Below, piece by piece: positions 22,634-62,500 of a DNA stretch of 64,000 nucleotides. The notes under the pieces are model-generated. The model ran no database searches, was not told the DNA's origin, and saw only the letters and a program-made list of their open reading frames with translations. Position 1 is the first letter of the stretch, and each line of letters opens with the position of its first letter. Source of the stretch: a phage; the sequence record PX880099.1. One strand, written 5' to 3'. The position numbers and the translations under genes are program-made.

Positions 22634-23449
22634 TTATTTGTTTAAGTGGTCTTCGACCATTTTAATGAAACCTTCATTGCTGAAGGCTGTTGCAGCTTTT
22701 TCTCGGTAAACAAAAACTCCACGATCTTCATAGAGAAGTGTTTCTTCGTAATTAACTCCAGGGTTAACTACAACCATTTTTGTACCCATACTAAGCGCAG
22801 GGAATAATTCCCAATTAAAATTGATAACTTGGTTTGAACATCCTACTACTACAACCAAATCTTGCATGGTCAAAGTATCGAACAAGTGAGCCATATCTGC
22901 ATACAAAGGTGCAGCCTCACCAAAAAATACAACATTAGGCTTCACCCAGTTATAATCATCTATGTTTATACTATTGTAACCAATATCTACCAGTGTTTTG
23001 TAATCTCCAGGATGCATACGGTAAACTACTTCAGGAAGATATCCGTGCACGTGAATAACAGAATCTCTGTCTACACCTGCTCGCTCTAATAGATCATCAA
23101 CGTTTGTCGTCAAGTTTACTACTTGGTTAGGATATTCCTTAAACCACTTTGCTATTTGAATATGTGCAGCATTAGGTTGTACATCTTTAAGCTCAACACG
23201 TCTTTTGTTATAAAATTCGTGTGTTTTGGCATACAAATCCATACCGTTCTCGTCTACACCACCGACCACTGGAAGATCTGGAGATGTTCTAACACGATAA
23301 CCTGCTTGGAAAGCTCCAATATCGCAGACCTCTTCTAAATCATATTCTTCCCATAAGGCACGACCACTATCGGTGTCTGTTCGGAATGTTCTAATCCCAC
23401 TATCTGCACTTAAACCTGCACCGCTTACAAAAATCACTCGTCTTGGCAT
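22634..23449 (-). CDS. Sir2-family (sirtuin-like) protein
   Basis: VIFVSGAGLSADSGIRTFR (GAG..SGI.TFR), TTNVDDLLERAG (TQN.D.LHERAG-like), VIHVHG; no internal Zn-ribbon cysteines seen. Confidence 0.65.
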   Translation of the reverse strand: MPRRVIFVSGAGLSADSGIRTFRTDTDSGRALWEEYDLEEVCDIGAFQAGYRVRTSPDLPVVGGVDENGMDLYAKTHEFYNKRRVELKDVQPNAAHIQIAKWFKEYPNQVVNLTTNVDDLLERAGVDRDSVIHVHGYLPEVVYRMHPGDYKTLVDIGYNSINIDDYNWVKPNVVFFGEAAPLYADMAHLFDTLTMQDLVVVVGCSNQVINFNWELFPALSMGTKMVVVNPGVNYEETLLYEDRGVFVYREKAATAFSNEGFIKMVEDHLNK

Positions 23450-50331: not shown

Positions 50332-51057
50332 TTACTTATTAATAATACCTGCAATATTAGGTTTGACAAAGGTCGATGGTTTCATGATCTTACCTTTATC
50401 ATCAAAGAACACATACACTTTCTGTTTTTCATTATAAACAGCATGAACACCAGTGTATGCTCCTTCTGGACGATTGGCATTTCGTTCTTCAATTGCAGTG
50501 CATTCTTGTGCAATGGCTGAATCGATATCTGAAGTTTTCCAAGTTTTCAGCAACTGTTGTTTAGTTGGATACTTGGAATCATTACTTTTCAATACCTCTT
50601 TAATAATTTTCTTTTCTGGATATTTTGAACGGATTAGAGTGTCACGAGACATACGCATAATACCAGCAGCCATTAGTGCCATTTGAACTGGTTCTGTAAA
50701 TGTTTGTTCCAAAGCATCAAAATCAGTATACACAGTTGGAGTAAAAACATCGCCTACAGCATAGTCCAAGAAATTCATCGTATGTTCTTCACCAAAGAAC
50801 ATGTAAGTCAGATAACTGGATACTACAAAAATATCCGCTGCTGCATCCAAGAGTTCTACATGATCGTTTACTTTCGCGGCTGTTTCATACTCTTTAAGCT
50901 CTTCACGAACGAACCCGATTTGGGACATAAATAGCTCTTGAGTGAATTCAGGTTGTTCACCACCTCGTGCTTTGGCATTCCAATCAATCACGTGCTTTGC
51001 TGCATTTTTGAAAAATTCAGTATCGAATTTAATATCTTTAAAAAAATTCTCGATCAT
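50332..51057 (-). CDS. hypothetical protein, possible MazG-like nucleotide pyrophosphohydrolase
   Basis: VREELKEYETAAK...VELLDAAADI resembles the EExxE...D all-alpha pattern; weak. Confidence 0.35.
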   Translation of the reverse strand: MIENFFKDIKFDTEFFKNAAKHVIDWNAKARGGEQPEFTQELFMSQIGFVREELKEYETAAKVNDHVELLDAAADIFVVSSYLTYMFFGEEHTMNFLDYAVGDVFTPTVYTDFDALEQTFTEPVQMALMAAGIMRMSRDTLIRSKYPEKKIIKEVLKSNDSKYPTKQQLLKTWKTSDIDSAIAQECTAIEERNANRPEGAYTGVHAVYNEKQKVYVFFDDKGKIMKPSTFVKPNIAGIINK

Positions 51058-51449: not shown

Positions 51450-52577
51450 TTATTCTGCTGGTTCCCAAGTGCCTGGGATCATTTCTCGGATACGAACACC
51501 AACAGGTTTTGTTGGAATACCTTCATCTGAAAATTCTTCATACTCTATTTCAACGAACTGATTAATCAAGGTAGAAGCATTCTCTGCTTTACGATAATTG
51601 ATAGTCTCATGAGCATCTTTACGCATTAAGAATTCGACTACTTTACCATTTTCCATCTCACCTGTCAACACTCCATCGCCATTTTTATCACTTTTTGAAT
51701 TTGTTACTTTAACTTCAAGGGTGTGGCGAGGCTTACGTTTAATAACGTCATAAGAACGTTTATCAAATTCGTAAACTCCGTGAGCATTACGATATACTAC
51801 ACCTTCAGCTTTCTCAAGTAAAGCTTTTTCATAGAAAGCATCAAACTGTTCTTGGTTTTCAATATACTCTGTATGAACTACACAAATAAGCTCATCAAGA
51901 CCATAATCCTCCACTACTGCCTTAAGAGCAGTAAGAACATCAACACGTTTTTCAAACGGTAGATCTGGAACTGGAATATCGTATACGTAATAATTCAGCA
52001 AAGGCGTATTTGCATTATGCTTCTTCCAGGCACTGTTAATTTGTTGCAGACTAAGGACACCTAACCCAGCAAACACTTCACCATCAAGAGGATGACCAAC
52101 AACTTCACTAATAAAGTTTGGAATACCTTTCCAATGAGGTGGCAGGTTATACACTTCTCCAGCTTTTGATAAACACTCCCCTTTCATGTTAATCATAGAA
52201 CGTAACCCGTTCAGTTTGTATTGTGCATAACCAGGGAACACAACCCTTTCAGGATAATCTTTATAATCCTGGCATTTCATTGGTGTAGAAGGAACATGGT
52301 TTTCAGCTTCTTCTTTTGTTTTATAATAGCCATTCTTTAACTGTTTTGTCCATTTGGCAAAAGCTTCAAGTTCAGCTTGTTCTTCCGGTGTTGTTTCATT
52401 GGAACGACCAATGTTTTTTGCTTCTGCTGTATAAGATTTTTCTGTGATTTTTCCACCTACCCTTCCATGAGCTACAGTAACAACTGCACCATCTGTATAC
52501 ACTGTCCACTGTTTAAGTTTTCCTTTTGAATCTTTACCGTACAGCGTTTGATTTGTTTGTTGCATTAGTCCTCCCAT
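51450..52577 (-). CDS. ATP-dependent DNA ligase (nucleotidyltransferase superfamily)
   Basis: Motif I YKLNGLR (KxDG-like), motif III HPLDGEVF, motif IV EGVVYR, motif V VIKRK. Confidence 0.55.
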   Translation of the reverse strand: MGGLMQQTNQTLYGKDSKGKLKQWTVYTDGAVVTVAHGRVGGKITEKSYTAEAKNIGRSNETTPEEQAELEAFAKWTKQLKNGYYKTKEEAENHVPSTPMKCQDYKDYPERVVFPGYAQYKLNGLRSMINMKGECLSKAGEVYNLPPHWKGIPNFISEVVGHPLDGEVFAGLGVLSLQQINSAWKKHNANTPLLNYYVYDIPVPDLPFEKRVDVLTALKAVVEDYGLDELICVVHTEYIENQEQFDAFYEKALLEKAEGVVYRNAHGVYEFDKRSYDVIKRKPRHTLEVKVTNSKSDKNGDGVLTGEMENGKVVEFLMRKDAHETINYRKAENASTLINQFVEIEYEEFSDEGIPTKPVGVRIREMIPGTWEPAE

Positions 52578-52786
52578 TTAAAAACTGAAATTTTCAATCT
52601 GTTACACACTTCATCCAAATCTGCGTCGAGTAACGTTGTAGATGTTGCCAACATATAATCAATGCTTGTGAAACCTTGCCCTTTGGCATAGTCAAGCATA
52701 TCTTCATACATATCTTCAAGATCACCGTCATCAAAAGTAGCTAGAAAATCCTCGTCCCCGCTACGAACATAAAATGCAGTACTCAT
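52565..52786 (-). CDS. hypothetical acidic protein (73 aa)
   Basis: ORF. Confidence 0.45.
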   Translation of the reverse strand: MSTAFYVRSGDEDFLATFDDGDLEDMYEDMLDYAKGQGFTSIDYMLATSTTLLDADLDEVCNRLKISVFKWED

Positions 52787-52974
52787 TCTTCTTCATCCCA
52801 AGATTCAAAAGCACAACAATCATCGGTTTCTATAATACCAACACGTCCGCAGGTATTGCAAGTGATTTTATCCCCGTAGAATAAATAATTTTTATCACCC
52901 TTTGTGTTTACAGTTATGTCATTACTACCACAAGGGCAAGTCAGCCAACCAACAACAACGATATCTTTTTTCAT
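52783..52974 (-). CDS. zinc-ribbon protein (63 aa)
   Basis: CPCGS...CNTCGR...CC. Confidence 0.5.
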   Translation of the reverse strand: MKKDIVVVGWLTCPCGSNDITVNTKGDKNYLFYGDKITCNTCGRVGIIETDDCCAFESWDEEE

Positions 52975-53319: not shown

Positions 53320-53724
53320 TTATTGAAGTTTAAGTGAACCACGAAGACGTTTCTCTTGCTGATCACGGATATATTGTGGAACATCGTGAATTGAATCATT
53401 ACCGTGCCTATTTTCAACAACTAAAGAGATAACTTGATAACCAAACTCTTCAGCAAGAGCTAGATAAGGTTTAAGTTCTTTCTCTGTGGTTGAAGTATTA
53501 GAAACAATAATCTTGTTAAGATTAGATGCCATAGCATCACGAACAATACCCTGACACCATGCGTGTGCTTTACCTACATTTTCTGGCTTCCAGTCGTAAA
53601 CACCACTTTCTGTGTAATGATATTGATCTGCCTCACAGATAGGCCAATAACCTTCAGAAATAATTTCTGCTACTGTAGATTTACCAGCACCTGAAACGCC
53701 ACGTAAAATGATAAGTTGTTTCAT
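53320..53724 (-). CDS. P-loop kinase (polynucleotide/nucleotide kinase-like)
   Basis: Walker A ILRGVSGAGKST; 134 aa; abuts RNA ligase gene. Confidence 0.55.
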   Translation of the reverse strand: MKQLIILRGVSGAGKSTVAEIISEGYWPICEADQYHYTESGVYDWKPENVGKAHAWCQGIVRDAMASNLNKIIVSNTSTTEKELKPYLALAEEFGYQVISLVVENRHGNDSIHDVPQYIRDQQEKRLRGSLKLQ

Positions 53725-54657
53725 TTATCCTCCAAAAAAGTTTTCGATTTTTTCACGTCGCTCTTGCTGATTTAAAGCAGCCCATTGAGTCTTCGTAAAA
53801 TTATTTCGAATCCATTCTAACAAAGCGTAATATTCTTCGTCAACCATTTGTTTGGCATTTTTTGGATTATCCCAAATCAGATCCCACTTTTTATCTCCAC
53901 CGCGCATAAGAAACTTCTTAGTAAGATAGTGTGGTGATTTAATTTTTAAAAGTAAGTTGAACGGATAGTTTGTTTCACGAACTACAAACCCTTCGTGTTT
54001 ACAATGTTTAGACATTTCAACAACATCTGAAAACTTAACCATTGGATGAACTTCAGGACGCTTAAATTTGGTGACAGAAGCAATTCCATCAAGAGCACCT
54101 TCAGGTAACATAAAACTTGTCCCATCAGGATTTTGAATTCTGGCACCAATTAAGTATGCACCTGGTTCTTCTTCGACAATATGCGGATCAGAAGGATCAC
54201 AGATTTCAAAAAGAAAAGTTGCTTTTGCACTCTCTGTCCATTTAATGAAATGTTCTATGTCATCACACTCTGAAACAATATGATTCTTTGCAATACTTGC
54301 AAAATCTGATTCAAGGCTTCCTGTTGTCGATACAATAAGTTGACCTTTATATACACCTACAGAGGCCATAAAACCATTTACTTTACGAACCACATCTACA
54401 AGTTCATCCGCTGGTAGATCTGTGCCATTCTCAAAACGATTAAAAATCTTAGTGAAAGGCCAAATAACAACATTGTCATCAGCATCAACAACAATTCCGC
54501 GACATTCTAGAAGACGAGAATCAATGCTCCATAAGTTATCCCAGAAAACTTTGTTCTTATACTTAAGAACAGATAGACCAGAATACTCTCCTTCTCTATA
54601 TGTTTTCTTATGAACTAAACCTTTTTCAACCAAATCGTCGCAATTAAATTTAGCCAC
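53725..54657 (-). CDS. RNA ligase, T4 Rnl1-like
   Basis: LLECRGIVV (T4 Rnl1 LECRGIMF), motif I RKVNGFM, motif IV EGFVVR, motif V LLKIKSPHY. Confidence 0.6.
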   Translation of the reverse strand: MAKFNCDDLVEKGLVHKKTYREGEYSGLSVLKYKNKVFWDNLWSIDSRLLECRGIVVDADDNVVIWPFTKIFNRFENGTDLPADELVDVVRKVNGFMASVGVYKGQLIVSTTGSLESDFASIAKNHIVSECDDIEHFIKWTESAKATFLFEICDPSDPHIVEEEPGAYLIGARIQNPDGTSFMLPEGALDGIASVTKFKRPEVHPMVKFSDVVEMSKHCKHEGFVVRETNYPFNLLLKIKSPHYLTKKFLMRGGDKKWDLIWDNPKNAKQMVDEEYYALLEWIRNNFTKTQWAALNQQERREKIENFFGG

Positions 54658-54658
54658 A

Positions 54659-55210
54659 TTACTCTCCTTTGATTATTTTGTGATGGTCTACAGTCACGAT
54701 ATCTCGTTTACTCATCATAGAAATTATCTCATCAAAATGCAAGATTTTTCCGTGTGCATCCCAACCCACATCTAACATTTTACCATAAGCTTCATCAGGG
54801 AAAGATCCGTGGGAATGCCCGTGTAGCATGATTGATCCACGACCTTGTTTATTCCAGGAGGCCATAGGGTAATGGCTTAAGACGAAGAACAGCTTCTGAT
54901 ATTTCACTTCGTCATAATACACCACTTCTCCATACTCTGCAAGCACTTCTCGGTGTTTGCTGTAGTCATGGTTCCCAACACAGTAGGTGATATCTCCTTG
55001 GAGACGGGAAGCAATTTTACGGGTATCTTCTTCTGTCCCAAAACAGAAATCGCCTAAATGCCACATCTTGACACCAGGACTCGTAGCACATTTATTCCAT
55101 GCTTCGATCAGTGCTTCTGTCATGTGGTCCATATCCTCCCACGGTCGATATTCAGGAGCAAACTCTCGTATACGTTTGTGCATAAAATGCAAATCACTTG
55201 TAATAAACAT
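54659..55210 (-). CDS. calcineurin-like metallophosphoesterase
   Basis: SDLHFMH, LGDFCFG, VGNHD, LHGHSH. Confidence 0.7.
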   Translation of the reverse strand: MFITSDLHFMHKRIREFAPEYRPWEDMDHMTEALIEAWNKCATSPGVKMWHLGDFCFGTEEDTRKIASRLQGDITYCVGNHDYSKHREVLAEYGEVVYYDEVKYQKLFFVLSHYPMASWNKQGRGSIMLHGHSHGSFPDEAYGKMLDVGWDAHGKILHFDEIISMMSKRDIVTVDHHKIIKGE

Positions 55211-55566
55211 TAGTATAATCCCTCGCTAAATAGGTCACGATCATGACCATTACGTTCGTAGTCAATCTGGTCTGCGTGTTTTGCAATGATGTATGCATCT
55301 TCACGACTCCACCAATTGTAATACTGATCAATAAAACCTTGATTGTTTGGAAGACAGTGTATTTTATCAAGCACACCTGCTTCTTTCAATACATTCAATT
55401 GTGCAGATAATACAGGATTTGCATGTCGAACACAAGGAATAATTAACTCTTCACCATTATTCAAAATATACTTATTCGCAGCACAAACAATAACACGTTG
55501 CGCATAATGTCCCTCACCGATCCAAGTGAGAGGTTGGTAACAAATGTTCTGACCAATACTGCTCAT
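55210..55566 (-). CDS. hypothetical protein (118 aa)
   Basis: ATGA-coupled to phosphoesterase. Confidence 0.5.
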   Translation of the reverse strand: MSSIGQNICYQPLTWIGEGHYAQRVIVCAANKYILNNGEELIIPCVRHANPVLSAQLNVLKEAGVLDKIHCLPNNQGFIDQYYNWWSREDAYIIAKHADQIDYERNGHDRDLFSEGLY

Positions 55567-55577
55567 TAAGTTTCTCC

Positions 55578-55922
55578 TTAATAGTGAACACGCTTCATTT
55601 GAATACCATAACGCAGCATGGATTCTTTTGCAAGCATGAATTTATCCCCAGCGGCGGGATTAGAAGTATGCACGAAAATGGTAGGTGAACCAAAACAAGG
55701 TTTACCAAACGCCAGAAGTTCTTCCAGGTGCAGGAAAACATCATACCCATCTTGGTCTGACTCCATACCTAAATCATTGTCAAAAGACCACTCGGTTACT
55801 CTTCGATACAGTTTAGCAGGATCATTGAGAAAGGCCATAGCTTCTTGTGACGTTTTAAACCAAATTGCATCTTCCTGTCCATAGTCGGCTGGGTTCCGCA
55901 TATCATCTATCCAAACTTTCAT
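55578..55922 (-). CDS. hypothetical protein (114 aa), receiver-like N-terminus
   Basis: MKVWIDDMRNP...WSFDNDLG pattern; family not confidently recognised. Confidence 0.45.
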   Translation of the reverse strand: MKVWIDDMRNPADYGQEDAIWFKTSQEAMAFLNDPAKLYRRVTEWSFDNDLGMESDQDGYDVFLHLEELLAFGKPCFGSPTIFVHTSNPAAGDKFMLAKESMLRYGIQMKRVHY

Positions 55923-59676: not shown

Positions 59677-59751
59677 GGCCCTGTAGCTCAATGGGAGAGC
59701 TGTCGGCTCATAACCGATAGGTAGCTGGATCGAAACCAGCCAGGGCCACCA
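59677..59751 (+). tRNA. tRNA-Met (CAT), elongator type or Ile-lysidine
   Basis: Hand-folded cloverleaf: acceptor GGCCCTG/CAGGGCC, anticodon loop CTCATAA, T-arm GCTGG-ATCGAAA-CCAGC, CCA encoded. Confidence 0.75.
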
Positions 59752-59753
59752 AC

Positions 59754-59828
59754 GTCTTTATGGTGTAATGGATAGCACAGGAGTCTTCTAAACTCTTAGT
59801 CAAGGTTCGATTCCTTGTAAAGACACCA
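59754..59828 (+). tRNA. tRNA-Arg (TCT)
   Basis: Acceptor GTCTTTA/TAAAGAC, anticodon loop CTTCTAA, T-arm CAAGG-TTCGATT-CCTTG, CCA encoded. Confidence 0.75.
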
Positions 59829-60024
59829 GAACATTTTAACATGAATTAGCTCAAGTGATTTGAACCCACTACTGATCATGGTGGCAGAGAATGAGGCAAG
59901 TATGTCAGAAATTATAAACAAAGGCCACGGTTATATTAGAAGACATAAATGCTCGAAGAGCACCGTTCGTGGAGAACGGGGGTTGGTGGAGTCACCATTC
60001 ATGGTAAAATGTTTTAAAAAACTA

Positions 60025-60059
60025 TTGACAACAAACATTATTTTATGTTAGATTATAAG
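60025..60059 (+). promoter_or_regulatory. promoter, tRNA-cluster type (TTGACA-N11-ATGTTAGATT)
   Basis: TTGACA 60025-60030; ATGTTAGAT 60045-60053. Confidence 0.5.
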
Positions 60060-60062
60060 TAT

Positions 60063-60153
60063 GGAAGGGCAAATCGACGTGGCGACGAAAACGGTCTTGA
60101 AAACCGCCGAGCTTGAAAGAGCCTTGGGAGTTCGACTCTCCCTCCTTCCGCCA
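60063..60153 (+). tRNA. tRNA-Ser (TGA), long variable arm, atypical D-arm
   Basis: Acceptor GGAAGGG/TCCTTCC, discriminator G, anticodon arm ACGGT-CTTGAAA-ACCGC like E. coli Ser-UGA, T-arm GGGAG-TTCGACT-CTCCC; D-stem could not be paired by hand. Confidence 0.55.
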
Positions 60154-60158
60154 GATTA

Positions 60159-60244
60159 GGTAGATTGGTGAAATGGTAGCCACAACAGTTTGCTAAACTG
60201 TAGTCGGAAACGGCGTGTAGGTTCGAGTCCTACATCTACCGCCA
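60159..60244 (+). tRNA. tRNA-Ser (GCT), type II
   Basis: Acceptor GGTAGAT/ATCTACC, anticodon loop TTGCTAA, long variable arm, T-arm GTAGG-TTCGAGT-CCTAC. Confidence 0.75.
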
Positions 60245-60415
60245 AGTTATCTTTAATGTAGCTTGTTGCTCTTAGTTGCTTGGTGTAACTTTTTGGAAGG
60301 ATGGCTGCAACCATCTTACTTTAATAGAGTAAACTTTCGGCAGATGGCCCCCACCATCTTACCGATACCTCATAGTCAGTGGTGCGAACACTGGCTATTT
60401 TAAAGATAATTTTAT

Positions 60416-60490
60416 ACATCGTTAGCCAAGCGGTAAGGCACTTGACTTTTAATCAAGGGAGCGAAGGTTCGAATCCTTCACGATGTACCA
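60416..60490 (+). tRNA. tRNA-Lys (TTT)
   Basis: Acceptor ACATCGT/ACGATGT, anticodon arm CTTGA-CTTTTAA-TCAAG, T-arm GAAGG-TTCGAAT-CCTTC. Confidence 0.7.
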
Positions 60491-60495
60491 AACAC

Positions 60496-60582
60496 GTAGG
60501 TATCGCATAGCGGCAATTGCTGGAGACTGTAAATCTCCTGCCCTTCGGGGCTTCGTTGGTTCGAGTCCAACTACCTGCACCA
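60496..60582 (+). tRNA. tRNA-Tyr (GTA), type II
   Basis: Acceptor GTAGGTA/TACCTGC, anticodon arm GGAGA-CTGTAAA-TCTCC, long variable arm, T-arm GTTGG-TTCGAGT-CCAAC. Confidence 0.75.
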
Positions 60583-60589
60583 AATTAAA

Positions 60590-60674
60590 GATGGATTGGC
60601 CTAGTGGTTGGGCGACGGACTGTTAATCCGTGAACGAAAGTTCTAGCAAGGTTCAAATCCTTGATCCATCGCCA
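60590..60674 (+). tRNA. unusual type II tRNA with anticodon GTT (Asn codons) on a Ser/Tyr-like scaffold
   Basis: Perfect acceptor GATGGAT/ATCCATC, discriminator G, 3-bp D-stem GCC/GGC, anticodon arm ACGGA-CTGTTAA-TCCGT, 15-nt extra arm GAACGAAAGTTCTAG, T-arm CAAGG-TTCAAAT-CCTTG. Confidence 0.6.
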
Positions 60675-60753
60675 AATAGTGCTTGTAGAGTTAATAGAAA
60701 CCTCTAGAATTTTCTAGAATTGTAGATATCAAATCCTACCAAGCAAATATTTT

Positions 60754-60828
60754 GCTCCTATCGTATAACGGCTATTACGGTTGCCTTGTAAGCAACTTAT
60801 CAGGGTTCGAGTCCTTGTGGGAGCACCA
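60754..60828 (+). tRNA. tRNA-Thr (TGT)
   Basis: Acceptor GCTCCTA/TGGGAGC, anticodon arm GTTGC-CTTGTAA-GCAAC, T-loop TTCGAGT. Confidence 0.7.
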
Positions 60829-60850
60829 ATTTAACTCTAAAGGAGTGTAT

Positions 60851-61174
60851 GTGACAGAAAAAGAGTTAGAGAAATATTTTAATATCAATGTTTTCGATGG
60901 TTTTGATGATATTGAAGATGTTGAAAGATATTATGAAGTAGAGTTAGATAAGGATAACATTGTAATTCTTTCTGCCACTTATGATTGTGCATATTATGAA
61001 GGTGAATCTCACGTTTATTTCTATGATATGAAAACATCTTTGTTTTATGAAGTACACGCATATCATTGTTCTTGTTATGGCTTAGAAGGTCAGTGGGAAC
61101 CTGAAGAAATAGGTGATTTGAGCTTTACGGTTGCATATCTAAACAGACGTGGTGCATCTACTATTTTAAAATAA
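60851..61174 (+). CDS. hypothetical protein inside tRNA cluster (107 aa, GTG start)
   Basis: SD TAAAGGAG then GTG 60851; track ORF (from TTG 60752) trimmed because it overlaps tRNA-Thr. Confidence 0.5.
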   Translation: MTEKELEKYFNINVFDGFDDIEDVERYYEVELDKDNIVILSATYDCAYYEGESHVYFYDMKTSLFYEVHAYHCSCYGLEGQWEPEEIGDLSFTVAYLNRRGASTILK

Positions 61175-61188
61175 ATATTAAAAGCCTC

Positions 61189-61218
61189 TTGACAAAGGGG
61201 CTAATAATATGTTAGAGT
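61189..61218 (+). promoter_or_regulatory. promoter, tRNA-cluster type (TTGACA-N11-ATGTTAGAGT)
   Basis: TTGACA 61189-61194; ATGTTAGAG 61209-61217. Confidence 0.5.
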
Positions 61219-61229
61219 AATATTGTTAA

Positions 61230-61304
61230 GCGGGTATAGTGTTAATGGTAGCATATGAGGTTTCCACCCTCCAGGTGCAGGTTCAAGTCCTGTTACTCGC
61301 TCCA
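61230..61304 (+). tRNA. tRNA-Gly (TCC)
   Basis: Acceptor GCGGGTA/TACTCGC, discriminator T, anticodon loop TTTCCAC, T-loop TTCAAGT. Confidence 0.7.
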
Positions 61305-61404
61305 AGATTATTTAAATGGAATCGCTAGAGAAAATTTCTCTTTTCGCTCATGGTTTTCTCCTTCAAACTCTAGCGGTTCTTTTTAAGTGATTTTTTAGTT
61401 TTAT

Positions 61405-61479
61405 TGGAGATTAGCCTAGTGGGAAGGCAACGGCCTTTGAAGTCGTGATGACTAGGTTCGATTCCTAGATCTCCAGCCA
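61405..61479 (+). tRNA. tRNA-Gln (TTG)
   Basis: Acceptor TGGAGAT/ATCTCCA (U1-A72 as in E. coli Gln), discriminator G, anticodon loop CTTTGAA, T-arm CTAGG-TTCGATT-CCTAG. Confidence 0.7.
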
Positions 61480-61486
61480 ATATTTA

Positions 61487-61562
61487 CAGTGCGTAGCGCA
61501 GTTGGTAGCGTGGGAGCTTTGGACGCTTCAGGTCGCAGGTTCGAGTCCTGCCGCACTGACCA
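61487..61562 (+). tRNA. tRNA-Pro (TGG)
   Basis: Acceptor CAGTGCG/CGCACTG (C1-G72), anticodon arm GGAGC-TTTGGAC-GCTTC, T-arm GCAGG-TTCGAGT-CCTGC. Confidence 0.75.
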
Positions 61563-61567
61563 AATTT

Positions 61568-61642
61568 GCAGAGATAGCTGAGACGGATTAGTGCTACCCT
61601 GAAAAGGTAGAAAGGATGGATCGTTACCATCTCTCTGCACCA
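61568..61642 (+). tRNA. tRNA-Phe (GAA), non-canonical T-loop
   Basis: Acceptor GCAGAGA/TCTCTGC, anticodon arm CTACC-CTGAAAA-GGTAG, T-arm GATGG-ATCGTTA-CCATC. Confidence 0.6.
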
Positions 61643-61719
61643 AATAACACCATCCAAGGAGTAGACTTGGTTAACTGTCAATAGCACATTGAGGCTTCTT
61701 ACAGTGGTGTACTTATTAT

Positions 61720-61804
61720 GGCTAAGTGGTGGAATGGTATACACGATACGCTTAGAACGTATTGCCCCAAGGGATTGTGAGTTCGAGTCTCACCTTAGCT
61801 ACCA
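61720..61804 (+). tRNA. tRNA-Leu (TAG), type II
   Basis: Acceptor GGCTAAG/CTTAGCT, discriminator A, anticodon arm ATACG-CTTAGAA-CGTAT, long variable arm, T-arm GTGAG-TTCGAGT-CTCAC. Confidence 0.7.
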
Positions 61805-61819
61805 AATTATTAGATGTTT

Positions 61820-61898
61820 CGCGGGATAGAGGAGTCTGGTCGTCCTCGCCAGTTTCATATGCTGGAGATCGTTGGTTCAAATCCAACTCCCGTTACCA
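61820..61898 (+). tRNA. initiator-like tRNA-fMet (CAT)
   Basis: 5' CGCGGGA like E. coli initiator CGCGGGG; 1:72 mismatch (C/U); A11:U24 in D-stem; anticodon loop TTCATAT; T-arm GTTGG-TTCAAAT-CCAAC. Confidence 0.55.
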
Positions 61899-61917
61899 AA
61901 TTTTGCAAGGAGATAAA

Positions 61918-62331
61918 GTGACAGCCAAGAAATCAGCCCAGTTGGGAATGAACGTAAGTACCGCTACGGGCAGGTTAACAAAAGATATAATGTGGCGACT
62001 GATCGTTCAGACAAATCAGAACATGTGCTTTCATTGCGGTAAAGAAATGACGAGAGAAGACTTCTCCATCGAGCACAAAGTTCCTTGGTTGGATAGTGAA
62101 AACCCACAAGACTTATTTTTTGACTTGGACAATATTGCTTTCAGTCACTTATCCTGTAATGTTGCCGCAGCACGTAAGCCGAACAAAGGTATTATTCCTC
62201 ATGGAACATCATCAGGATATGATACTCACAAATGTAGGTGTGATGCATGCAAAGCAGCAAAAGCTGCAAGACGTAAAAAAGAATACACACCAGAAAAGCG
62301 CAGAGCAACTTACGAGCGTACTGGTAAATAG
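61918..62331 (+). CDS. HNH homing-endonuclease-like protein inside tRNA cluster
   Basis: CFHCGKEM...IEHKVPW...NIAFSHLSCN; GTG 61918 after SD AGGAG; track ORF (from 61762) trimmed because it overlaps tRNA genes. Confidence 0.65.
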   Translation: MTAKKSAQLGMNVSTATGRLTKDIMWRLIVQTNQNMCFHCGKEMTREDFSIEHKVPWLDSENPQDLFFDLDNIAFSHLSCNVAAARKPNKGIIPHGTSSGYDTHKCRCDACKAAKAARRKKEYTPEKRRATYERTGK

Positions 62332-62336
62332 ATAAT

Positions 62337-62419
62337 AGCCGGGTAGATTTAAAAGAGTATGGTACTCAATATGGCTCCAAACCATAGATCAGGGGGTTCG
62401 ATTCCTCACCTTGCTGCCA
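62337..62419 (+). tRNA. tRNA-Trp (CCA)-like, irregular (possible pseudo-tRNA)
   Basis: Anticodon arm TATGG-CTCCAAA-CCATA matches E. coli Trp loop; T-arm GGGGG-TTCGATT-CCTCA; acceptor AGCCGGG/CCTTGCT has 1 mismatch; extra nt between acceptor and D-stem. Confidence 0.35.
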
Positions 62420-62424
62420 ATTAT

Positions 62425-62500
62425 TGTGGTATCGTACAGATGGTTAGTACACTCGACCGATAATCGAGAAACAACGGTTCGACTCCGTTTACCACGACCA
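62425..62500 (+). tRNA. tRNA-Ile (GAT), C33 in anticodon loop
   Basis: Acceptor TGTGGTA/TACCACG, D-arm GTAC-AGATGGTTA-GTAC, anticodon arm CTCGA-CCGATAA-TCGAG, T-arm AACGG-TTCGACT-CCGTT. Confidence 0.55.

Follow-up and report, generated by a model that had tools for sequence, protein, structure and literature searches.

Five leftward genes in a Phapecoctavirus genome

In the 64,000-nucleotide stretch of phage DNA analyzed here (sequence record PX880099.1, referred to as the window), the listing of open reading frames (ORFs) shows five minus-strand genes between positions 53320 and 55922, which code, in the order of transcription, for a cREC domain protein, a homologue of T4 Arn.3, a metallophosphoesterase, an RNA ligase, and a small P-loop kinase. 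The original prediction, made from the letters of the sequence alone, had described ligase, kinase, phosphoesterase, and two further genes as running leftward at these positions and had read the first three as a split RNA-repair module. The ORFs confirm positions and orientation, and the motifs that had been quoted for the three proteins are all present and are invariant or nearly so across their homologues. Region 53320–55922 shows an identity of about 96% with over 50 deposited genomes of Phapecoctavirus (phAPEC8, ESCO5, ESCO13 group, Stephanstirmvirinae) and about 60 further genomes, Justusliebigvirus included, are 80–90% identical to the 2.6-kb region; the source phage is a coliphage of the phAPEC8 group, Phapecoctavirus. 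In the GenBank relatives the genes carry various labels, such as 'putative RNA ligase/RNA repair', 'putative polynucleotide kinase', 'ATPase', 'metallophosphatase', and 'anti-restriction nuclease'. About 23 MG0656xx records of 'Campylobacter phage' (H9, H78, H154, and H164 among them), for which C. jejuni is given as host, are 86–96% identical to coliphage Phapecoctavirus/Vequintavirus, and their host labels look doubtful.

The five genes are tightly packed. A spacer of 11 nucleotides separates the cREC gene from the gene for the 118-residue Arn.3 homologue, the latter overlaps the phosphoesterase gene by one nucleotide (ATG/TAA), phosphoesterase and ligase genes are one nucleotide apart with GTG as the start codon of the ligase, and the ligase/kinase junction reads TAAATG; a Shine-Dalgarno sequence is present upstream of every one of the five genes. 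The tight junctions had been described correctly, though unrelated genes downstream (hol-like, Lar, a 73-residue ORF, and DNA ligase) are packed equally, being 9 nucleotides apart or overlapping, and spacing at the cassette therefore says little about function. A scan for promoters and terminators stayed at background level and its result was not used, and PADLOC gave no meaningful match.

Ligase and kinase

The ligase gene (53725–54657, minus strand) codes for 310 amino acids, which form a nucleotidyltransferase core and a short helical C-terminal region of about 65 residues. Searches of the PDB with the single sequences of ligase and kinase were uninformative (E of about 0.01–0.1) and family profiles were therefore needed for both. 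Pfam family RNA_lig_T4_1 (PF09511) matched the ligase with an E-value of 3.7e-15 and 56.8 bits (cut-off 28.3) over profile positions 1–227, that is, over the whole profile, and a search of 1.84 billion cluster representatives yielded 2125 relatives at E ≤ 0.001, the best 150 of which have a median length of 307 amino acids. An alignment of 41 homologues has twelve invariant residues (R53, G54, K70, N73, K92, G95, E151, H159, E222, G223, K238, and K240). K92 (in KVNG), E151, E222-G223, and K238/K240 align with KEDG, FE, EGY, and KIKS of T4 Rnl1, and the N-terminal elements specific to Rnl1 are also kept, R53/G54 and K70/N73 being aligned to ECRG and PMEKFFN of the T4 enzyme. The family profile (A4) matched T4 Rnl1 (2C5U) at 4.9e-18 across Rnl1 residues 51–250 with all nucleotidyltransferase motifs in register (ECRG, PxxKxFN, KxxG, FE, EGF/Y, KxKS), and Rnl3-type enzymes came next at 1e-5 to 1e-4.

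An AlphaFold (AF2) model of the ligase was obtained with a predicted local distance difference test (pLDDT) score of 95.1. When this model was compared with the PDB by Foldseek, the ligase domains of Trl1 (Trl1-LIG) and T4 Rnl1 were the best matches (E 1e-12 to 9e-12, query-normalised TM-score 0.60–0.69), the fungal Trl1-LIG structures 6N0T, 9QW7, and 9R3W (E about 1e-12, query-normalised TM-score up to 0.69) being marginally ahead of T4 Rnl1. Rnl3 enzymes ranked lower (1e-9 to 1e-6), as did Rnl2, Rnl5, and DNA ligases (1e-5 or worse), and the ligase structure of Clostridium thermocellum Pnkp (CthPnkp) was absent from both the sequence and the fold matches. Orthology with T4 RnlA was ruled out, as the protein scored 24 bits with the NCBIfam equivalog TIGR02308, the cut-off of which is 242.25, and matched only with residues 43–166. 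Family profile and modelled fold together give good support to the prediction that the 310-residue protein is an Rnl1-clade ATP-dependent ligase that would seal RNA, and the invariance of its catalytic residues across more than 40 diverged homologues argues for an active ligase.

The kinase gene (53320–53724, minus strand) codes for a stand-alone P-loop protein of 134 amino acids, which matches Pfam AAA_33 (2.7e-10) and the PHROG families phrog_2071 and phrog_505, annotated as 'polynucleotide kinase'. Its P-loop, GVSGAGKST, includes K15, and in a profile of 34 homologues G12, G14, K15, T17, D33, N76, T77, and E104 are invariant and R106 nearly so. A search with the single sequence gave generic P-loop matches only. 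Searching the PDB with the family profile (A2) gave Pnkp1 from Capnocytophaga as the best match (4XRP, 8e-7), and a Trl1-type kinase from Mucorales (9D8A, 3.6e-5), CthPnk (4GP7, 6.8e-5), and T4 Pnk (1LY1/1LTQ, 2–3e-4) were also found; D33 is aligned to the catalytic aspartate of Pnkp1 (vnrDDf) and of CthPnk (ssDf). Gluconate, adenylate, and deoxynucleoside monophosphate (dNMP) kinases matched this profile more weakly than the polynucleotide kinases or by the P-loop alone, and the match to a dNMP kinase among the PHROGs was limited to the P-loop (residues 1–35). The prediction of a polynucleotide-5'-kinase-like protein is thus well supported by profile comparison.

Phosphoesterase

The third gene (54659–55210, minus strand) codes for a protein of 183 amino acids, which Pfam, PHROGs, and profile comparison place with the binuclear metallophosphoesterases, in the clade of Aquifex aq_1665. 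It matched Metallophos (PF00149) at 2.2e-5 with 25.4 bits, over the cut-off of 21.5, Metallophos_2 at 1.9e-5 with 25.1 bits, slightly under the cut-off of 27, and phrog_547 at 8.7e-56. The set of calcineurin-like motifs looked for (DxH, GD, GNH(D/E), H, GH, and GHxH) is complete, and the metal-ligand motifs D6, H8, G53-D54, G79-N80-H81, H113, G131-H132, and H134 do not vary among the 36 homologues aligned. The family profile (A3) led to aq_1665 (1XM7) at 5.8e-23, the next matches in the PDB, GpdQ (2DXL), a COG0622 protein, and Rv0805 (2HYP), being weak; neither the phosphatase of CthPnkp (4J6O) nor lambda phosphatase was matched. The use of a metallophosphoesterase had originally been likened to bacterial Pnkp, and from these results that likeness is a functional analogy within the superfamily and not orthology. 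PdeM, the ligase-associated phosphoesterase family, matched with an E-value of 0.0044 and 16 bits against a cut-off of 150. The protein is a candidate for the healing of 3'-phosphate or 2',3'-cyclic phosphate ends.

cREC and Arn.3-family proteins

The two remaining genes had been called uncharacterized, and both can be classified. The first (55578–55922, minus strand) codes for 114 amino acids and matches PF20274, the cREC (cyclic-phosphate-processing receiver) domain, at 6.8e-17 with 62.4 bits (cut-off 27); acidic residues of the receiver type are found in WIDDMR (the DD pair), FDNDLG, and HTSNP, which are common to the protein of the window and that of Vequintavirus Bas49. Orthologues of the two phages are 57% identical, and the gene adjoins the ligase gene in Bas49 and lies two genes from it in the window. 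cREC was defined as a divergent receiver domain, reported never to occur with histidine kinases and to share operons with RNA ligases (Iyer et al., 2021, Viruses 13:63, PMC7824862), and it is predicted to open 2',3'-cyclic phosphates or cyclic phosphates of ADP-ribose (ADPr) (PMC7824862, PMC9503650). In ESCO5 (gp119, L001 6407–6751) and other GenBank relatives the 114-residue cREC gene is labelled 'putative RNA ligase and tail attachment protein', an annotation that was probably carried over from the adjoining ligase.

The second gene (55210–55566, minus strand; 118 amino acids) belongs to the Arn.3 family of T4. The GenBank label 'anti-restriction nuclease', which refers to T4 Arn, was rejected because the protein is a homologue of T4 Arn.3 and not of Arn. 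The family was found in 1578 phage records, mostly of T4-like phages and Kuttervirus, and in Akh-2 its gene lies 2.3 kb from the phosphoesterase gene. Conserved polar residues are R47-H48, Q76-G-F-x-D80, R88, S114, and Y118; the structural model is confident and matched no solved fold. In T4 and Kuttervirus the family stands among unrelated early genes and has no linkage to RNA repair, and so a link of the 118-residue gene to the module, which had been proposed from its coupled position, is not established and its membership is uncertain. Between this gene and the cREC gene, ESCO5, SKA64, and most relatives have a very acidic ORF of 47 residues (MHHSVWSEQEEDEGYF...), which is missing from the phage of the window, where the 11-nucleotide spacer takes its place; the difference is a 148-bp indel (window 55566–55578 against L001 6254–6397).

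Linkage and fusion of the families in other phages

The ligase loci of seven diverged lineages (Phapecoctavirus, Vequintavirus Bas49, Pakpunavirus PaP1, Otagovirus phiPsa397, Thalassavirus ABurr, Shenzhenvirus Akh-2, and Saclayvirus Liucustia) were translated into six-frame ORFs and scanned with the family profiles. In each of the seven, members of the ligase, kinase, and phosphoesterase families are encoded together within 3 kb, and the kinase gene directly adjoins the ligase gene in six, one small gene standing between them in phiPsa397. Ligase and kinase were found in 728 and 625 phage records, respectively, with nearly equal counts per host genus of 199/198 for Escherichia, 177/173 for Pseudomonas, 36/36 for Klebsiella, and 24/24 for Acinetobacter, and cREC and phosphoesterase were found in 348 and 1412 records, respectively.

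Among the best 150 relatives of the ligase, fusions of kinase and ligase occur in both orders (Pnk-Rnl: P0331, P0379, P0403, P0420; Rnl-Pnk: P0334, P0425), with E-values for the kinase family of about 1e-20 to 1e-48. There are also uncharacterized proteins of 700–812 amino acids with three domains, kinase, Metallophos, and ligase (P0349, P0378, P0418, and similar ones), and their ligase domain, of the Rnl1 type (PF09511), shares about 40% identity with the phage ligase. The phosphatase domain of P0418 matches CthPnkp 4J6O at 6e-14, and no match of P0418 to CthPnkp ligase structures was found at E < 0.01. In these proteins, an architecture like that of Pnkp is combined with a ligase domain of the Rnl1 type.

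The distribution of the families bears on an explanation in which kinase, phosphoesterase, and cREC act mainly on small molecules, degrading or modifying immune signals derived from cyclic nucleotides or ADPr or feeding nucleotide metabolism, and the ligase is an independent neighbour in the early-gene block. In keeping with this, the number of phage records with the phosphoesterase family is about double that with the ligase, the distant solved relatives of the phosphoesterase, GpdQ (2DXL) and Rv0805 (2HYP), are small-molecule phosphodiesterases, cREC is predicted to process cyclic ADPr species too, a MazG pyrophosphohydrolase is encoded nearby, and tight packing is generic in the gene block. 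However, fusions with the ligase, in either order, involve the same kinase family, the record counts of the two families nearly match, the kinase gene directly adjoins the ligase gene in six of the seven lineages (with a small gene between them in phiPsa397), and the nearest solved relatives of the kinase are polynucleotide kinases and not nucleotide kinases, so that we regard this explanation as very unlikely.

Five of the lineages (Pakpunavirus, Thalassavirus, Otagovirus, Shenzhenvirus, and Saclayvirus) have the cassette beside NAD+ salvage genes or within about 7 kb of them, these genes coding for nicotinamide phosphoribosyltransferase (NAMPT) and phosphoribosyl pyrophosphate (PRPP) synthetase (L006 9322–12148; L007 10741–13747; L008 9499–13398; L009 15560–16864; L010 13443–16543), and in two of these five lineages an Rnl2-type ligase is also near. 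NAMPT, Prs, Rnl2, and HD-domain genes, which are neighbours of the cassettes of PaP1, ABurr, and Liucustia, were sought in the window and none was found. Streptomyces phage BRock carries a cluster of tRNA genes along with genes for an RNA ligase and a metallophosphatase and a MazG-like gene; its proteins were not detected by family profiles or single-sequence searches at E < 1e-3, and BRock was left out of the count of conserved lineages.

DNA ligase, sirtuin, and tRNA genes in the window

An ATP-dependent DNA ligase of 375 amino acids is encoded 1.1 kb downstream of the cassette (51450–52577, minus strand) and, between the two, a Lar-family restriction-alleviation protein of 63 amino acids (52783–52974, minus strand). 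A DNA ligase gene lies a few kilobases from the RNA ligase gene also in PaP1, phiPsa397, Liucustia, and Bas49. With such neighbours, kinase and phosphoesterase might heal DNA ends for the adjacent DNA ligase, at breaks with 3'-phosphate and 5'-OH made by host nucleases, and the RNA-ligase-like protein might have another role, for example the tail-fibre attachment attributed to T4 gp63; the weak PdeM match of the phosphoesterase (E 0.0044) and the labels 'tail fiber protein attachment catalyst' in GenBank and PHROGs would also fit. However, the PdeM score reaches 16 bits where the cut-off is 150, the tail-attachment label was passed on from T4 gp63 by homology alone, and the kinase is found fused to RNA ligase and not to DNA ligase. 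Moreover, the conservation of the catalytic residues speaks for an active ligase, and the solved folds closest to it are tRNA and RNA ligases, DNA ligases being far worse. This explanation is therefore considered highly improbable.

A neighbourhood 'prototyped by Escherichia phage V5 and Proteus phage Mydo' has been described by Iyer, Burroughs, Anantharaman, and Aravind (2022, Viruses 14:1977, section 3.7.3, PMC9503650), with a T4-like tRNA ligase, cREC, a nucleotide kinase, a MazG pyrophosphatase, a calcineurin-like phosphoesterase, and a distinct sirtuin, for which a function like that of KptA/Tpt1 was proposed. This description is computational only. Orthologues of all six components are present in the window, and identities to the Bas49 proteins are 48% for the ligase, 57% for cREC, 44% for the kinase, 35% for the phosphoesterase, 47% for the sirtuin, and 31% for MazG. 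The claim of an architecture not yet described thus fails, as the same type of neighbourhood had been published for rV5 and Mydo and the genes are annotated in GenBank relatives. The MazG-like nucleotide pyrophosphohydrolase is encoded at 50332–51057 (minus strand; PRA-PH 3e-6; phrog_671) and the sirtuin, an orthologue of the rV5 type, at 22634–23449 (minus strand; SIR2, PF02146, 1.3e-22). In Bas49 the sirtuin gene is two genes from the ligase gene and is followed by the MazG orthologue, whereas in the window it is not contiguous with the other components, which all lie within 50.3–55.9 kb, but is separated from the cassette by 30 kb and stands at the opposite end of the leftward block to which both belong; three of its four scanned same-strand neighbours have no Pfam match. 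Two further differences were noted: kinase and phosphoesterase genes of Bas49 are divergent from the ligase gene, whereas the cassette genes of the window are all co-directional, and the window has the Arn.3-family gene inserted between those for cREC and phosphoesterase.

As Iyer et al. (2022, PMC9503650) have proposed, ends might be processed by an NAD+-dependent route of the fungal and plant type, in which cREC or the phosphoesterase would open the cyclic phosphate to 2'-phosphate and 3'-OH, the ligase would seal and leave a 2'-phosphate at the junction, the sirtuin would remove this phosphate with NAD+ in the manner of Tpt1/KptA, and the by-product, ADP-ribose cyclic phosphate, would be cleared by cREC, the phosphoesterase, or MazG. 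That paper sets out the model, and several observations agree with it: the modelled ligase finds its best folds in the ligase domains of fungal Trl1, slightly ahead of T4 Rnl1, the window carries the rV5-type sirtuin orthologue (47% identity; SIR2 1.3e-22), the Vequintavirus gene order is ligase, cREC, sirtuin, and MazG without interruption, and genes for NAMPT and PRPP synthetase are beside the cassette or within about 7 kb of it in PaP1, phiPsa397, ABurr, Akh-2, and Liucustia. On the other hand, the sirtuin gene of the window is 30 kb from the cassette, neither a NAMPT nor a Prs gene is present in the window, the nearness of NAD+ salvage genes may merely reflect a common early-gene region, and the 2'-phosphotransferase activity of sirtuins is so far a prediction. 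A binuclear phosphoesterase could also take off both cyclic and linear phosphate, as is reported for CthPnkp (PMC2190708), which would make the NAD+ step unnecessary. Taken together, this route is judged rather unlikely for the cassette. A bolder suggestion, likewise unlikely, is that the cassette is the first prokaryotic or viral NAD+-dependent route of the Trl1 style, with cREC as the predicted opener, the Trl1-like ligase sealing so that a 2'-phosphate stays at the junction, the sirtuin as the analogue of Tpt1, and the Arn.3-family protein perhaps as an unrecognized enzyme of the route, an idea that draws on the confident model that matched no solved fold and on the invariant Arg-His, Gln, Asp, and Ser/Tyr of that protein. 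A Hen1 methyltransferase was not seen among the genes at 50.3–56.4 kb (Pfam and PHROGs) or in annotated relatives.

The original prediction had counted 16 tRNA genes, and 14 were detected by ARAGORN and the same 14 by Rfam (RF00005), at 59677–62500 on the plus strand: Met, Arg-UCU, Ser-GCU, Lys-UUU, Tyr-GUA, Asn, Thr-UGU, Gly-UCC, Gln-UUG, Pro-UGG, Phe, Leu-UAG, Met, and Ile-GAU. A tRNA cluster adjoins the cassette in the window and likewise in Bas49 and BRock. The isoacceptors Lys-UUU and Tyr-GUA, and also Thr-UGU, are targets of known defence tRNases, and their presence in the cluster is consistent with a protection of translation, which it does not prove.

Predicted repair pathway

Host ribotoxins and anticodon nucleases leave termini with 2',3'-cyclic phosphate and with 5'-OH. 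We consider, with a probability of roughly 0.7, that the cassette is a phage module that heals and seals RNA, chiefly tRNA. In support of this reading, the family of each protein is assigned, the catalytic motifs are intact, gene linkage is conserved, and kinase and ligase also occur fused. In such a pathway, the 3'-terminal phosphate would be opened and removed by cREC and/or the metallophosphoesterase to give a 3'-OH, the 5'-OH would be phosphorylated by the small P-loop protein with a nucleoside triphosphate, and the ligase, adenylylated on K92 (lysyl-AMP), would pass AMP to the 5'-phosphate and seal the break. Overall this would be the job of T4 Pnkp and Rnl1, with healing split over separate proteins and a metallophosphoesterase instead of the phosphatase of the HAD type. 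The mechanism is deduced from family membership together with established chemistry, as given in PMC3592404 for T4 Pnkp and in PMC2190708 for CthPnkp. The substrates are probably RNA ends of this kind, cREC and phosphoesterase may divide the labour at the 3' end between them, and a role against host defence, namely against anticodon nucleases, is plausible.

Several points weigh against heal-and-seal repair of tRNA. The DNA ligase gene 1.1 kb downstream is syntenic in other lineages, which makes a role in the healing of DNA ends possible. The score of the ligase with the T4 RnlA equivalog (24 bits against a cut-off of 242) is low and its sequence alignment to Rnl1 stops at motif V (Rnl1 residue 250), before the C-terminal domain of Rnl1, so that tRNA specificity is not to be assumed. 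The only close solved relative of the phosphoesterase, aq_1665 (1XM7), is a structural-genomics protein without known function. The phosphoesterase family extends far wider than the ligase (1412 against 728 phage records), being found also in phages of Staphylococcus, Listeria, and Bacillus, which are not main hosts of the ligase matches, and its profile A3 matched no phosphoesterase domain of the ligase fusions, as those belong to other clades. Finally, the literature search found no experimental study of the cassette and no measured activity for the five proteins or close homologues.

The HMM (hidden Markov model) and structure searches that had been proposed as a check led from the ligase to T4 Rnl1 and Trl1, from the kinase to polynucleotide kinases, and from the phosphoesterase to aq_1665. 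The split RNA-repair module is thus upheld by family assignment and comparative genomics, while the accompanying claims on an undescribed architecture, the likeness to Pnkp, the number of tRNAs, and the link of the 118-residue gene were not supported.

Comparison with known repair systems

One comparison is with T4 Pnkp and Rnl1, which counter the anticodon nuclease PrrC and combine the reactions predicted for the cassette: the 5' end is phosphorylated, the 3' or cyclic phosphate is removed, and the break is sealed with ATP. The ligase of the window is of the same clade as Rnl1 and its kinase family is homologous to the kinase domain of T4 Pnk (1LY1/1LTQ). However, the ligase has 310 amino acids and not 374 and does not align to the C-terminal domain of Rnl1 past motif V, and the kinase of 134 amino acids stands alone, without a fused HAD (DxDxT) phosphatase, in place of which there is a binuclear metallophosphoesterase; this contrast with T4 had been drawn correctly in the original prediction. 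To our knowledge, there is no counterpart of cREC in the T4 repair pathway. T4 Pnkp is described as a kinase fused to a DxDxT phosphatase (PMC3592404).

In bacteria, kinase, metallophosphoesterase, and ligase are likewise combined in Pnkp (Pnkp/Hen1 of Clostridium thermocellum; Pnkp1-Rnl-Hen1 of Capnocytophaga), and the kinase profile of the window matches Pnkp1 and CthPnk. According to PMC2190708, the metallophosphoesterase of CthPnkp is a 2',3'-cyclic phosphodiesterase as well as a monoesterase. In contrast to these systems, the window has three separate ORFs and not one polypeptide, and its phosphoesterase belongs to the aq_1665 clade and not to the clade that resembles lambda phosphatase. 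Trl1 of fungi and plants, with the domain order LIG-KIN-CPD, provides the best fold for the ligase model, and its Mucorales kinase 9D8A is matched by the kinase profile; the cassette differs from Trl1 in having no 2H cyclic phosphodiesterase domain and in that its components are separate proteins.

Significance

The cassette is not a new kind of system: it is common in phages, it is already annotated in GenBank, and the prediction is already in the literature, where it has been described by comparative genomics. Defences that cleave tRNA are now numerous, PrrC, RloC, PARIS, retron-Septu, and OLD among them, and experiments on tRNA repair by phages have so far been done almost only in T4. In large phages of Gram-negative bacteria, the split cassette, with its kinase, its metallophosphoesterase, and its Rnl1-like ligase, is much more widely distributed than the arrangement of T4 (728 phage records for the ligase). 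What cREC and the aq_1665-type phosphoesterase do, what role the sirtuin has, and how the Arn.3 family folds are points that merit experiments. The cassette is thus a tractable target for a study of tRNA restoration outside the T4 group, which would also give the first measured activities for cREC and for phosphoesterases of the aq_1665 type.

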